From contig JALONP010000005.1 of assembly GCA_025454875.1 (NCBI GenBank), positions 9,431 through 73,430 of the forward strand: a stretch of DNA of 64,000 nt. Reading direction: 5' to 3'. The translations under genes and the position numbers were made by a program. This DNA comes from Bacteroidia bacterium. GTDB lineage: Bacteria; Bacteroidota; Bacteroidia; UKL13-3. The notes below the pieces were generated by a model. The model was not told where the DNA came from. It ran no database searches and was given only the letters and a program-made list of their open reading frames with translations. Shown in pieces: positions 54,651-58,643 of the stretch (within the stretch, counting starts at the first letter, position 1; each line of letters starts with the position of its first letter).

Positions 54651-56813
54651 TTATAATTTTTCCAATATAAACCGTGTCATTCGTTCATATAAGTGCAGAC
54701 GGGTTTTGCTACCTCCAATTCCATGGTTTTTGTTAGGGTAAAATTCACTGTCAAACTTTACCCCTTTGTTAATCATTGCATTCACCATTTCTACTGCGTT
54801 TTGAAAGTGCACATTGTCATCCGCTGTTCCATGAATGATTAAGTAATTGCCTTTAATTTTTTCTACATGGTTGATGGGTGAATTCTCGTCATAACTTTTT
54901 CCGTTTTCTTGTGGTGTACGCATAAAGCGTTCCGTATATATATTATCGTAATAACGCCAATTGGTAACCGGTGCAACTGCAATGGCAGTTTTAAATACAT
55001 CAGCACCTTTGCTGATACCTAAACTTGCCATATACCCACCGAAGCTCCAGCCCCAAATGCCAATTCTATTCCTATCTACATAATTCAGATTTTGCAATTG
55101 CTTGGCTACATAAATCTGGTCTTCAATTTCAAATTTTCCCAATTGAAGATAGGTTGATTTCTTAAATGCCTCTCCTTTAAAACCTGTCCCACGGCCATCT
55201 ACACATACAATCAAGTAACCTTTATCTGCCAATAATTGGTACCAAAAGTAATTTGATCCCATCCACCTGTTCACTGCAAGTTGATGCCCAGGACCTCCAT
55301 ACACATACATTAGCACCGGGTATTTTTGTTTCTCAGTGAAATTGGTTGGCTTAATAACAAATGCATTTAATGACTCACCATATGCATTCGAAAAGGAAGT
55401 CATTTCAGCGTTGTTTATTTTGTATGAAGTCAATTTGGATTGCAACTCGGTATTATTCTCTAAAACTCGTATTTCTTTTCCGGCCGCATCACATAATGCA
55501 TAATAAGGAGGTGTGTTGATGCTTGATTGAGACAGTAAAAAGTAGCTAAAATCAGCATTGAATGTAGCGTTATTCCATCCGCGTTTTTGCGTTAATTGTT
55601 GTTTCTTTTTTCCGTCCAATCCTATTGCGTAGACATAACGCTCAGTTGAGTTTACTTCAGAACTTGTAATATAAATGGTTTTGTTTTTTTCATAAATACC
55701 ATAAAATTGATCCACATCCCAGTTGCCGTTAGTTATTTGTTTCATAAGTTTTCCATTCAAATCATATTGGTATAAATGATTCCACCCAGACTTTTCACTG
55801 TTAATAATAAATGACTTTCCATCTTTTAAAAACGTGATCTCAGGAACATCAAGGTATGCTTTGTTTTCTTCTGTATAAACTAAAGTATGACTGCCTGTAT
55901 TTGTGTTGGCAAGCAACAGCTCGAGTTTATTTTGCAAACGGTTCATTCGTTGAATGCAAAGTAAGTTTTCATTTTGTGTCCAGTGAATTCGTGGTATGTA
56001 AATATCGGTTTCATTTCCAATATCAAGTTTTGTAATAGAACCAGTATTGGTTTGGTAACAATATAATGTAATGACCGAATTGGCTTCTCCTGCCTTTGGA
56101 TATTTAAACTGATAGTCTTCTGGATACAACTTACCGTACATCGCCATATTAAACTCCTTCACCTTGCTTTCGTCAAATCGGTAATAAGCCAATTGGCTGC
56201 CGGTTTTATTCCAATAAAATCCTTTACTTAAAGCAAATTCTTCTTCATAAACCCAATCAGTTGCTCCGTTGATAATAGCATTTGTTTTTCCATCCGTTGT
56301 GATTTGTTTTTCGGCCTTATTCTTCAAATCATACACATACAAATTATTATTTTTAACGTATGCGAGATGTGTTCCATCAGGCGAAAATTCGGCCAGCATT
56401 ACTTCCTCTTTCACTGGTTGAAACAACAATTTACTTTTTACATCATATACATAAATATTGGCTGCATAAGAGTGACGGTACAATTGCTTAAAGTTTGTTT
56501 GTAGCAATAACTTATCTTCCTTAGCGCTAAATGTGTAGCTGAATTGTTGCAGGTTAAGGTCACGCTGGTACACAATCGTATCAATGGCTTTACCAGAAGC
56601 AAAACTATAGCGAATAATGTTTTCATTATCATCTTGAGCGGTGTAATACCTGCCATCATTCATTGAATTAAACCCGGGAACACCTTTGGCAGAAAAGGTC
56701 CCCCTTGTCCAAATATCTTCAAGTGTAATGCTTTGCTGGGATGAGCATTGAAACGCGGTATAGTGAAAAATAATAACCGCAAAGGCGCAATGTCGCCAAG
56801 TGAATCTAACCAT
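54651..56813 (-). CDS. dpp4: Dipeptidyl peptidase IV (S9B)
   Basis: DWVYEEE, YPKAG, GWSFGG nucleophile, HGTADDNVH, NHGI. Confidence 0.93.
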   Translation of the reverse strand: MVRFTWRHCAFAVIIFHYTAFQCSSQQSITLEDIWTRGTFSAKGVPGFNSMNDGRYYTAQDDNENIIRYSFASGKAIDTIVYQRDLNLQQFSYTFSAKEDKLLLQTNFKQLYRHSYAANIYVYDVKSKLLFQPVKEEVMLAEFSPDGTHLAYVKNNNLYVYDLKNKAEKQITTDGKTNAIINGATDWVYEEEFALSKGFYWNKTGSQLAYYRFDESKVKEFNMAMYGKLYPEDYQFKYPKAGEANSVITLYCYQTNTGSITKLDIGNETDIYIPRIHWTQNENLLCIQRMNRLQNKLELLLANTNTGSHTLVYTEENKAYLDVPEITFLKDGKSFIINSEKSGWNHLYQYDLNGKLMKQITNGNWDVDQFYGIYEKNKTIYITSSEVNSTERYVYAIGLDGKKKQQLTQKRGWNNATFNADFSYFLLSQSSINTPPYYALCDAAGKEIRVLENNTELQSKLTSYKINNAEMTSFSNAYGESLNAFVIKPTNFTEKQKYPVLMYVYGGPGHQLAVNRWMGSNYFWYQLLADKGYLIVCVDGRGTGFKGEAFKKSTYLQLGKFEIEDQIYVAKQLQNLNYVDRNRIGIWGWSFGGYMASLGISKGADVFKTAIAVAPVTNWRYYDNIYTERFMRTPQENGKSYDENSPINHVEKIKGNYLIIHGTADDNVHFQNAVEMVNAMINKGVKFDSEFYPNKNHGIGGSKTRLHLYERMTRFILEKL

Positions 56814-57234
56814 ATTAAAAATTATTTACTTTTCGTTTAAAGCCATCAATCAGTTTGGGCACATTAAAATTGATAATAAACCCAAGCCTTTTGTCTGCTA
56901 ATCTAAGATATGTTATTATTTGTGCTTCGTGCACAGGCAGCAAAGTGTCTACTGCTTTAAGTTCAATTATAATTTCTTCAGCAACTAATAAGTCAATTCT
57001 GAAGTCAAGATTAAGCATTTCAGTTTTATATTTTACGGGTAATGTTACTTGACGTTGCACAAAGATATTTCGATTCCTTAACTCTTTATAAAGACAAACT
57101 TCGTAGACACTTTCTAGCAAGCCAGGCCCTAGATTTTTATGTACCTCAATTGAAGCATCTAATATTTGCTTACTAAGCATATCTAATTCTTTACTATTCA
57201 TAAAAAAATCTTTGCGCCTTGCCGTCTTTGCGGT
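56776..57234. mobile_element. Putative GxxExxY cassette bounded by imperfect 25-bp inverted repeats
   Basis: Left ACCGCAAAGGCGCAATGTCGCCAAG (56776-56800). Right, reverse-complemented, ACCGCAAAGACGGCAAGGCGCAAAG (57210-57234). 19/25 identical, outer 9 bp perfect. Confidence 0.55.
56815..57201 (-). CDS. GxxExxY protein (PD-(D/E)XK-like nuclease fold)
   Basis: VHKNLGPGLLESVYE, RIDLLV..EIIIELK, HEAQIITYL, GFIINF. Confidence 0.95.
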   Translation of the reverse strand: MNSKELDMLSKQILDASIEVHKNLGPGLLESVYEVCLYKELRNRNIFVQRQVTLPVKYKTEMLNLDFRIDLLVAEEIIIELKAVDTLLPVHEAQIITYLRLADKRLGFIINFNVPKLIDGFKRKVNNF

Positions 57235-57245
57235 AAAATTGCATT

Positions 57246-58643
57246 GTGCAATATAACAAAGTTACTGCTTCGCAAATAAGCCAATTTGTTGCTATAGTTG
57301 GCGAACCGTTTATCATTTTAGATCACGAGAGCAAGGCTTTGTATTCCAAAGATTATACAGAAGATCTGTTTTACGAACCAGAGATTGTGCTTAAACCCCG
57401 CACAGCCCAAGAAATTTCAGCCATACTCGCCATTTGCAATGAACATAGGATCCCACTCACGCCACGCGGAGCCGGTACCGGATTAAGCGGAGGAGCATTG
57501 CCACTTTATGGTGGAGTGGTAATTTCAATGGAACGCTTTAACCAAATTATTGAAATTGATGAACGTAATTTTCAAGTTACGGTTGAACCTGGTGTTGTAA
57601 ATGAAGCATTGCAACAAGCTGTTCGAGAGAAAGGGTTGTTCTATCCACCTGATCCTGCAAGCAAGGGAAGTTGCTTTTTAGGAGGCAATATTGCGCATGC
57701 GAGCGGTGGGCCTCGCGCGCTCAAATATGGTACAACCCGCGATTACGTACTTAACTTAGAAGTAGTATTGCCTACTGGTGAAATTATTTGGACAGGAGCC
57801 AATACCCTTAAATATTCAACTGGATACAATCTTACTCATTTATTTATTGGCAGTGAAGGTACCTTGGGTATCGTAACCAAAATGGTGTTAAAGTTGATAC
57901 CGCATCCACAACATACGCTGTTATTGCTCGCTCCGTTTACGTCACCTGAAAAAGCTTGTGAAGCCGTAAATGCGATATTTTTGGCTGGTTGCAATCCCAG
58001 TGCATGTGAGTTTATAGAACCAAGTGGTTTCGAACTTGCTGCCAGTATGCTCAATATCCAGTTTGAAATCCAACCTAATATTGAGGCCTATTTACTCATT
58101 GAAGTAGATGGCAATGATTTAGAATTGATGATGAAGGAATGCGAAGCGATAAGCGAAGTATTGTATGCTCACCAAAGCGGTGAAGTATTGTTTGGACAAA
58201 CTGCTGATGAAAAAGAGTATTTCTGGAAACTTAGAAGAAGCATTGGCGAGGCTACTAAATTTAATAATACCTACAAAGAAGAAGATACAGTTGTGCCACG
58301 AGCTGAATTACCCAAACTGTATAGAGGTGTGAAGGAAATAGGCAATCGTTTTGGATTTAGAACGGTTTGTTATGGACACGCAGGAGATGGAAATTTGCAT
58401 GTGAATATTTTGCGAGATCAACTTACGGATGAGGTTTGGAATAATGAGATTCCAAAAGCAATTGTCGCCATTTTTGAGTTGTGTAAATCATTAAAAGGTA
58501 CCATTAGTGGAGAGCACGGAATTGGACTGGTACAAAAGCCATACATGAAAGTGGTGATGCCTGAAGTGCAATTGCAGTTAATGCGTAATATCAAGCGCGC
58601 TTTTGATCCTCATTGGGTTTTAAATCCTGGTAAAATTTTTTAA
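57246..58643 (+). CDS. FAD-linked 2-hydroxyacid oxidase (GlcD / D-lactate dehydrogenase family)
   Basis: PRGAGTGLSGGA, YPPDPAS, GSEGTLG, GHAGDGNLH, SGEHGIG, LNPGKIF. Confidence 0.92.
   Translation: MQYNKVTASQISQFVAIVGEPFIILDHESKALYSKDYTEDLFYEPEIVLKPRTAQEISAILAICNEHRIPLTPRGAGTGLSGGALPLYGGVVISMERFNQIIEIDERNFQVTVEPGVVNEALQQAVREKGLFYPPDPASKGSCFLGGNIAHASGGPRALKYGTTRDYVLNLEVVLPTGEIIWTGANTLKYSTGYNLTHLFIGSEGTLGIVTKMVLKLIPHPQHTLLLLAPFTSPEKACEAVNAIFLAGCNPSACEFIEPSGFELAASMLNIQFEIQPNIEAYLLIEVDGNDLELMMKECEAISEVLYAHQSGEVLFGQTADEKEYFWKLRRSIGEATKFNNTYKEEDTVVPRAELPKLYRGVKEIGNRFGFRTVCYGHAGDGNLHVNILRDQLTDEVWNNEIPKAIVAIFELCKSLKGTISGEHGIGLVQKPYMKVVMPEVQLQLMRNIKRAFDPHWVLNPGKIF

Follow-up and report, generated by a model that had tools for sequence, protein, structure and literature searches.

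Can a single small gene, framed by a pair of short inverted repeats, be a mobile element in its own right? The question is raised by a 64,000-nucleotide stretch of DNA from a Bacteroidia bacterium (GCA_025454875.1, contig JALONP010000005.1), called the window here. In it a gene of the GxxExxY family lies between inverted repeats built of 8-nt units. An original prediction, made from the letters alone, took this unit for a minimal mobile cassette whose protein recognises its own iterated ends. Our reading, held with moderate confidence, is that the cassette is one copy of a widespread selfish family of REP/RAYT-like type, in which a nuclease gene is paired with a repeat and gene-less hairpin derivatives occur; binding, cleavage and movement we infer. 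The evidence comes from the architecture, its conservation and gene specificity, the dispersal of the ends, their co-occurrence with the gene family, one clean case of presence and absence, a cassette tree discordant with the flank, conserved catalytic residues and a modelled fold.

The cassette is 459 bp long and lies between a dipeptidyl-peptidase IV family gene (dpp4) and a divergent gene for a GlcD-like oxidase (glcD). Its gene (56815..57201, minus strand; 387 bp, 128 aa) is of the PD-(D/E)XK nuclease type according to the open reading frame (ORF) table, PF13366 and TIGR04256. The upstream arm, or cassette 5' end (57210..57234, minus strand), consists of ACC and three 8-nt units, which read CGCAAAG-A, CGGCAAG-G and CGCAAAG on the minus strand. 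This arm is 8 nt from the ATG of the GxxExxY gene and 11 nt from the divergent start of glcD. The downstream arm, or 3' end (56776..56800, minus strand), begins 14 nt past the stop codon and is the reverse complement of the 5' arm type. A repeat search recovers the pair as a 25-nt inverted repeat, 76% complementary and 409 nt apart (56776-56800 vs 57210-57234). The outermost 9 bp of the arms match perfectly. Coordinates, gaps, gene length and the division of each repeat into three units were all as first described, and no target-site duplication is visible at the window cassette.

Judged alone, the window repeat is only marginally above chance. Its inverted-match score of 10.0 equals exactly the 99th percentile of shuffles, and similar inverted pairs are found in the same 1 kb of the window (25 nt at 72%, 22 nt at 73% and 11 nt at 100%). 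The CGCAAAG heptamer is not enriched, with nine occurrences in the window against 7.2 expected, three of the nine inside the cassette. The repeat gains its significance because the same layout recurs across the GxxExxY family.

Species-representative genomes were scanned for relatives, and 80 loci were obtained in which these are 46-84% identical. They come from Bacteroidota, Acidobacteriota, Chloroflexota, Planctomycetota, Alphaproteobacteria, Cloacimonadota and others. Sixty-nine loci were usable; one was dropped for lack of a stop codon and nine because the start call, the 80-nt flanks or a 100-aa ORF was missing. Each was scored by the best inverted match between the 80 nt upstream of the start and the 80 nt downstream of the stop, with the 99th percentile of shuffles as threshold. 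The inverted match exceeded this threshold in 42/69 loci, compared with 1/59 controls with flanks 320-400 nt away, 9/69 in direct orientation and 46/345 with mismatched loci. Inverted iterated repeats at GxxExxY genes elsewhere, which the original prediction had proposed to look for, are thus present in 42/69 loci vs 1/59 distant controls.

A strict search for a three-unit pattern (at most one mismatch, 427 kb around 79 genes) returned 89 arms, 88 of them classifiable. Sixty-four of the 88 bracket a gene in the expected orientation, 35 of them on the coding strand just ahead of the start and 29 on the opposite strand just past the stop. A further nine overlap the assigned stop of the GxxExxY gene. 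Arms are 16-52 nt long (median 29) and lie 2-45 nt before the ATG (median 18) or 1-26 nt after the stop (median 5). A strict two-unit classifier sorted 64 loci into 25 with arm, gene and arm, one with hairpin, gene and hairpin, one inverted, 13 one-sided and 24 with none, although it undercounts, being blind to arms of 9-10-nt period that are visible by eye. At a few loci a complete hairpin (arm, 20-150-nt loop, arm) flanks the gene on each side instead of single arms. Syntenic orthologues of the window copy have arms at the same positions, better preserved than in the window. The window's genome (2.98 Mb, 38.9% GC) has three PF13366 genes, and the other two also lie inside inverted repeats, each with its own sequence. 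No other gene family was seen to recur beside arms, though no systematic search for one was made. Tandem or nested cassettes are also seen (L144, L147, L006, L011), either with a second upstream arm and ATG about 25 nt beyond the end of the first element or with neighbouring arms of two different types.

The 89 arms define a family consensus end, T(C/A)ACC followed by three copies of C-R-C-N-R-A-G plus a spacer base. The terminus was not imposed by the search pattern and is kept across the set (T in 73, C or A in 44 and 26, A in 80, C in 82). The inter-unit spacer base is A, G or T, never C. Some lineages have 9-10-nt units or a GTCTGAAC terminus instead. Where both sides have a strict arm (29 loci), the ends agree at core positions R2, N4 and R5 in 97%, 78% and 93% of cases, against 50%, 47% and 54% between loci. 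The spacer base agrees between the two ends in 52% vs 44% between loci. Because the core is shared and the spacer base is not, it is the units that are conserved and not a continuous stem. Mismatches between arms (43 of G.U type, 45 of A.C type, 83 of transversion type) have no G.U bias in the sense strand (p 0.92). A stem with a single mismatch in each 8 bp is physically possible. On sequence grounds, conservation of the units looks like the pattern expected of repeated binding sites for an element-specific protein.

Arm types are specific to genes. Paralogues that share a genome each own a distinct arm type, and the original suggestion that repeats co-vary with protein clade is borne out by the protein tree, on which the unit core makes 17 changes against 41.9 in shuffles (minimum 36, 200 shuffles). 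This distribution is co-inheritance; co-evolution is not implied by the tree alone.

Arms are also found away from genes. They were searched for with an exact 23-nt arm pattern, and the reversed pattern served as control. Exact arms number 44 in genome G061, 79 in G066, 48 in G065, 2 in G063 and 5 in G067, and the control gave 0-2. G061 has three PF13366 genes, G066 has five intact genes and one split copy (seven matches) and G065 has ten matches. Across 151 Acidobacteriota genomes the number of exact arms per genome ranges from 0 to 244 (with 210 in another genome) and across 151 Bacteroidota genomes from 0 to 100, with controls mostly 0-3. The solo repeats expected by the original prediction therefore exist in other genomes, up to the 244 just given, but the window's genome has no such dispersal.

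Nineteen sites inspected in G066 are complete hairpin elements of 150-170 bp, in both orientations and of several core subfamilies. Within an outer inverted repeat, each has a forward arm and a reverse arm separated by a loop of 25-35 nt. Almost every dispersed arm of G061 is of the CACGGAG type, which also flanks the gene L119/L246 of that genome. In G066 the subfamilies CGCAAAG, CGCAGAG, CACTGAG and CACAGAG each have a resident gene of the same core; no resident gene was found for the fifth G066 subfamily, CACCAAG. The nearest relative to compare at the G066 solo-hairpin sites is 83% identical, and divergence and repeats in the spacers are too heavy for empty sites or a target-site duplication to be judged.

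Several observations on solo arms and on look-alikes may be added. The G066 solo hairpins (L182-L200) lie inside larger composite repeats, with an outer inverted repeat of the GTGAAAAAAT class and further shared flank, and the edge of L182 has a sub-threshold partial match to Rfam Acido-Lenti-1. In three genomes (G300, G131, G204) the majority of arm pairs stand head to head, with the reverse arm first and the forward arm 35-56 nt on; abutting ends of two elements, or a circle junction, would give such an order. A secreted peptidase-like ORF at L248 (G061:C1:638300-638700) has its ATG 2 nt past the end of a solo CACGGAG arm, so that the GGAG of the arm's last unit is at the position of a ribosome-binding site. 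The 8-mer CGCACAGA, repeated in a long and pure tandem array confined to one strand (G359:C11:145403-145537 and C16:8-110), resembles the arm unit, but the control pattern is equally frequent there and the array is microsatellite-like, not an arm. Unrelated to the cassettes is a 1.1-kb multi-copy insertion sequence of the ordinary kind in G066 (L202:2395-3520, contig C30), which that genome carries at least 7 times at 99% identity; two further genomes of the same family have it at 78-86%.

The arms co-occur with the gene family in two phyla. With arm-rich genomes defined as those with at least five pattern hits after subtraction of the control, PF13366 is matched in 32/40 arm-rich vs 25/111 arm-poor Acidobacteriota (odds ratio 13.8, p 3e-10; the count takes in G116, flagged as unpublished) and in 28/29 vs 57/122 Bacteroidota (odds ratio 32, p 1.7e-7), p-values that are overstated because related genomes were treated as independent. 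The likeness to a REP-RAYT pair drawn by the original prediction is strengthened by these dispersed gene-less hairpins that co-occur with the gene family.

Presence and absence can be compared directly at one site. In a congener, a 483-bp element (L136) separates the stop codon of a gene from the ATG of its neighbour. The window's genome shares the flanks of this site (79-80% identical), with only 2 nt from stop to ATG and no remnant of an arm. The L136 lineage is found in other contexts in other genomes of the family, where the match (71-75%) is confined to the element. The 5' terminus of L136, of the GTCTGAAC class (L136:1434-1445), overlaps the last codons and the stop of the upstream gene, and at the empty site in the window's genome (G000) that gene ends in other synonymous codons and another stop codon.

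The dpp4-glcD site has a less simple history. Thirty loci were inspected from 57 matching genomes of the family, and dpp4 and glcD are adjacent in 26 of the 30 loci. The gene is intact in 11 loci, fragmented in four and missing from 15. Several of the gene-less loci retain the upstream arm and the first codons of the gene, and distant genera have short spacers with no trace of a cassette. A clean empty site was found at L136; at dpp4-glcD, the junction where the original prediction had proposed to look for one, there were gene-less loci, several of them with arm relics. At a second site in the genus (the C24 copy) there were 3-4 gene losses among seven congeners; because arm relics remain, the gene-less genomes there are in-situ deletions and not an insertion polymorphism.

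Ten intact syntenic cassettes form two deep clades (support 100/99) that cross genera, and arm type follows clade. Approximately unbiased (AU) tests on the cassettes reject genus monophyly (p 3.9e-5, 0.0015 and 3e-79), although a larger tree had been seen before the groups were fixed, which makes their choice weaker as a preset test. In the flank tree, from the first 300 aa of GlcD, two congeners with cassettes of different clades group together (99/97). The cassette clade is rejected on this flank (p 0.004), and genus monophyly narrowly escapes rejection (0.054-0.093). The conflict of the two trees indicates that cassettes have been exchanged or re-acquired at one site. Stable synteny between dpp4 and glcD had been named beforehand as evidence that would tell against mobility. 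The cassette is indeed resident across several genera, but loss, decay and a discordant tree accompany this residence. Gene copy number per genome varies from 1 to 27. Carriage by plasmids is rare (7/72,556 records), and no match to the family was found in 50,697 phage records.

The protein itself matches PF13366 PDDEXK_3 (E 9.1e-40, 136.1 bits against a cut-off of 22) and TIGR04256 GxxExxY (E 7.2e-42, 142.4 bits against a cut-off of 35). PF13366 is its sole Pfam match; neither an HUH/Y1 domain (Y1_Tnp) nor any known transposase class was matched. The motif residues are G27-x-x-E30-x-x-Y33, D70, E80-x-K82 and Q94-x-x-x-Y98. In 41 sequences G25, G27, L28, E30, Y33, D70, E80, K82, Q94 and N111 are invariant, and C36 is the only near-invariant cysteine. 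Five of these (E30, D70, E80, K82 and Q94) are of catalytic type. In the structure model (pLDDT 95.4, pTM 0.88) E30, D70, E80 and K82 are on helix 30-43 and strands 68-73 and 77-82, and the alpha-beta-beta-beta-alpha-beta core is present. The PD-(D/E)XK-like fold with RID...ELK that had been proposed agrees with the profile match, the model and the residues R68-I69-D70 and E80-L81-K82.

Structural comparisons point the same way. The top Foldseek match is Cas4 SSO0001 (E 1.4e-3, TM score 0.52-0.58), followed by another Cas4 and lambda exonuclease. A Foldseek-independent VIA search gave BpuSI (Z 8.1, root-mean-square deviation (rmsd) 2.9, 93 residues), a Spirosoma restriction-endonuclease-like protein (Z 8.0) and Cas4 SSO0001 (Z 8.0, rmsd 3.1, 99 residues), with other restriction enzymes and Hjc next. 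The named fold neighbours (Cas4 4ic1, BpuSI 3s1s, 3ijm, SwaI, BglII, Hjc and lambda exonuclease) are all PD-(D/E)XK nucleases. No subfamily stands out, because BpuSI and the Spirosoma protein score the same as Cas4, and a sequence search found no relative with a solved structure. Judged from the model, the protein is a minimal PD-(D/E)XK nuclease that is probably active.

Some ends have entered coding sequence. The original prediction overlooked that the left repeat lies within the longest reading frame of dpp4 (54651..56813, minus strand; PF00930 E 5e-99, PF00326 E 3.4e-57). The dpp4 ATG is 1 nt past the GxxExxY stop codon and the 3' arm is therefore translated. The N-terminus of DPP4 reads M-V-R-F-T-W-R-H-C-A-F-A-V, and the arm supplies codons 5-13 of the predicted signal peptide, T-W-R-H-C-A-F-A-V. 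The arms of ten syntenic relatives, of whichever type, likewise encode the hydrophobic core of this signal peptide (L-R-L-C-A-F-A-V and L-T-L-C-L-C-A-S-V-V are examples), and in genera without the cassette the signal peptide is unrelated. The cassette end thus seems to have been recruited as coding sequence for the core of a predicted signal peptide. On the other side of the cassette, the divergent GlcD-like FAD-linked oxidase (57246..58643, plus strand; PF02913, PF01565) scores 428 bits with TIGR00387, below the equivalog cut-off of 567.9.

A second case of coding sequence is the mnmG/gidA gene of G061, which contains a complete hairpin (arm, 146 nt, arm) in frame (L242, G061:C2:2205300-2205900). 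A 200-aa frame is open across the hairpin and PF01134 matches in two stretches. The site has 73 residues, against 21-40 in three relatives without arms; the hairpin adds about 40-50 residues to a variable loop.

The following mechanism would account for these features. The family unit is a gene for a PD-(D/E)XK nuclease of about 125 aa framed by two inverted iterated ends. The nuclease may recognise the iterated units of its own ends, with the three variable unit positions setting the specificity of each element, and may cut at or near the T(C/A)ACC boundary. Host repair or ligation would then finish excision, insertion, allele replacement or exchange of cassettes between genomes. Internal deletion of a cassette would leave hairpins that the enzyme could still act on in trans, and some genomes do contain such derivatives by the tens or hundreds, in frame in genes among other places. 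The whole would form a cycle of gain, decay and loss akin to that of free-standing homing endonuclease genes. The window copy is on this reading an old resident of the dpp4-glcD site; it is single in its genome and intact, and its 3' end now encodes the core of the predicted DPP4 signal peptide. A bolder version, which we put forward only tentatively, makes GxxExxY the engine of transposase-free mobile DNA, with the 8-nt units read through a code at R2, N4 and R5 and a private repeat family for each paralogue, which would cut it and disperse it as cassettes and as gene-less hairpins.

A number of points weigh against a selfish nuclease-plus-repeat family. PD-(D/E)XK enzymes hydrolyse DNA and do not rejoin it, and cannot transpose alone; because a hydrolase of this type alone cannot explain rejoining, the proposal that the cassette is like an insertion sequence (IS) with a non-DDE enzyme is not established. 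Neither a target-site duplication nor a defined target was found at the window copy or at the L136 site. Near-identical gene-bearing copies within one genome were not found and there is no sign of a recent burst; such copies within any one genome are all divergent, with different arms, whereas the gene-less hairpins do form multi-copy families. The two arms of the window copy match at 76% only, its cassette stays between dpp4 and glcD in several genera, and the seemingly empty genomes at the C24 site keep arm relics. The co-occurrence figures, with their overstated p-values, also have exceptions in both directions. A PF13366 match is absent from 8/40 arm-rich Acidobacteriota and 1/29 arm-rich Bacteroidota, and three genomes (G082, G120, G142) have 26-53 net arms and no match. 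Conversely, 25 Acidobacteriota and 57 Bacteroidota genomes that bear the gene have few arms of the exact class, and G206 has 27 PF13366 matches and none. In G061 a forward and reverse pair of CACGGAG arms brackets a 147-aa ORF that matches PF00719 Pyrophosphatase (E 1.8e-17; L240:290-880, contig C2). A test of covariation between protein residues and unit cores had no power, with 1-2 independent pairs on supported branches and at most seven overall. A gene next to the pyrophosphatase-like ORF, acyl-CoA-dehydrogenase-like on reading, sits between a reverse and a forward arm.

The window's genome belongs to the same side of the balance. It has one exact arm only, outside the window on contig C15, and at up to two mismatches it has no more matches than a shuffled genome. 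At up to one mismatch there are three solo arms outside the window (G000:C15:45311-45333, G000:C8:93097-93119 and G000:C26:132519-132607). They are of CACAGAG-like types, carried by none of its three GxxExxY genes, and are probably relics of lost cassettes. A de novo scan of this genome for tandem units was too strict, and missed even the window copy.

The strongest competitor, which we consider unlikely, treats the hairpins as an independent family of MITE type (miniature transposable elements with inverted repeats), moved by another enzyme, with GxxExxY genes as cargo or captured between arms and without a role in the movement of the repeats. The arm pair around the pyrophosphatase-like ORF would be natural on such terms, as would the arm-rich genomes without PF13366, a hydrolytic nuclease that is incapable of rejoining DNA and the loci where the gene lies between two complete hairpins and not inside one. 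However, cargo would hardly be bracketed as tightly as these genes are by 64 (and nine more) of the 88 arms, nor would it be expected to own paralogue-specific arm types that follow the protein tree, dispersed subfamilies that match the arm type of the resident gene, and odds ratios of 14 and 32 in two phyla. Less likely again is that the arms act in the transcript, as a closing stem or as 5' and 3' hairpins, in RNase III-type processing, stability, termination or autoregulation. ORF-bearing intervening sequences of 23S rRNA offer a parallel. The 471-nt sense RNA of the window unit does fold so that the ORF is closed by the outer 9 bp together with parts of the arms (minimum free energy -117.6 kcal/mol, z -3.58), and 0/100 shuffles fold as well; arms are close to start and stop codons, T runs follow some hairpins and some solo arms directly precede start codons. 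Against this stand the lack of G.U bias (43 vs 45), the spacer base at which complementarity is not kept, the conserved terminal T(C/A)ACC, and hairpins that occur in both orientations, within coding sequence and in hundreds of copies. L136 is, moreover, cleanly absent at the DNA level, and no Rfam family is matched: nothing relevant was found in the window stretch at E up to 1, nor, at E up to 0.1, in 20 arm- or hairpin-bearing loci.

A domesticated host function in hairpin or cruciform DNA processing, chromosome organisation or defence, in place of selfish DNA, appears improbable. It could draw on the one site kept over several genera, the intact catalytic residues, the rarity of the family on plasmids and the lack of matches in the phage records noted above, and RAYTs are described as domesticated single-copy transposases in the accessible text of two reports (PMC5581495, PMC8266576). 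It fits poorly with frequent decay and loss at both sites (four fragments and 15 gene-less loci of 30; 3-4 losses among seven congeners), with a patchy distribution (57/151 Acidobacteriota, 85/151 Bacteroidota) and a copy number of 1 to 27, with a cassette history at odds with the flank and with hairpins inserted in genes. Coincidence in an AT-rich spacer would suit the comparable inverted pairs within 1 kb, the score at the 99th percentile and the heptamer that is not enriched, but it is refuted by the recurrence in the family over controls and by the better-preserved arms of syntenic orthologues, and we give it next to no weight. We thus retain the selfish nuclease-plus-repeat family as the preferred reading.

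Two named element types were also set aside. A 23S rRNA intervening-sequence element is ruled out, as the site is between two protein genes and there is no Rfam match. An integron attC site was rejected by inspection, with no integrase search made, the arm termini being unlike the GTTRRRY box.

The accessible part of a superfamily survey lists the function of PF13366 as 'Unknown', with 'multiple transfers' (PMC3424549). The GxxExxY literature, in its accessible portions, does not deal with the repeats. We found no printed description of the gene-plus-repeat system, although subscription journals and database family descriptions were beyond reach and prior notice is possible. The available text of a 2024 review of prokaryotic MITEs (PMC10969869) has no occurrence of Acidobacteria, Bacteroidetes, endonuclease or RAYT. 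On our best reading this nuclease-plus-repeat selfish system appears to be undescribed, and it resembles REP/RAYT with a different enzyme class.

PF13366/TIGR04256 is a large, patchy family, found in the numbers of sampled Acidobacteriota and Bacteroidota genomes given above, and the repeat architecture gives it a testable role. With this system, associations of gene and palindrome of the REP/RAYT type would have a second enzyme class, and the GC-rich hairpins that go unannotated in soil and freshwater bacteria, hundreds to a genome, would be accounted for. The hairpins reshape genes, as seen in the in-frame insertion in mnmG and in the arm-encoded core of the predicted DPP4 signal peptide. 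A small nuclease scaffold of easily evolving specificity is suggested by the 8-nt units, which are particular to each element. If the tentative code at R2, N4 and R5 is true, the family would be a natural set of small nucleases that are readily re-targeted, and a large family listed as 'Unknown' would have a function.

Among known systems the cassettes can be compared with several. The Cas4/RecB family shares the fold, as modelled, and the catalytic set E, D, ExK and QxxxY. The protein here is, however, 128 aa long, compared with 200-215 in the matched Cas4 chains, and has neither a four-cysteine Fe-S module nor extra domains. With homing endonuclease genes the cassettes share a selfish nuclease gene at one site, where intact, decaying, deleted and empty states coexist, and a gene phylogeny discordant with the flank. 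PD-(D/E)XK homing enzymes exist (I-Ssp6803I). Homing genes differ, however, in having no terminal inverted repeats or dispersed hairpin derivatives.

IS200/IS605 elements and MITEs resemble the cassettes in small size, terminal inverted repeats, ends capable of forming hairpins and gene-less derivatives; no target duplication is visible at the window copy or at the L136 site. In contrast to them, the cassette has no known transposase class, its ends are iterated units and its gene-bearing form has no identical copies in a genome. Rickettsia palindromic elements (RPEs) are palindromes of roughly 150 bp that insert in frame into protein-coding genes, according to the accessible text of the MITE review (PMC10969869). 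The in-frame hairpin of mnmG and the arm read as the DPP4 signal-peptide core are similar, but RPEs as described there have no associated nuclease gene and no 8-nt unit structure (PMC10969869).

The closest likeness is to REP/RAYT, for which low gene copy number and mostly vertical inheritance are reported in the accessible parts of three studies (PMC8266576, PMC5581495, 10.1101/2022.05.22.493013). As far as these sources describe them, both systems have a small single-gene enzyme between inverted copies of a short repeat, a repeat subfamily with a cognate gene, gene-less hairpins in tens to hundreds of copies (here in some genomes) that co-occur with the gene, a low gene copy number and inheritance that is mostly vertical. 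The enzyme here is a PD-(D/E)XK hydrolase, whereas that of REP/RAYT is an HUH/Y1 transposase, and the defining enzyme of REP/RAYT is therefore missing. The arm here is made of three tandem 8-nt units and a T(C/A)ACC terminus and is not a REP palindrome. The repeats are undispersed in many genomes, that of the window among them, and several paralogous pairs of gene and repeat can coexist in one genome.

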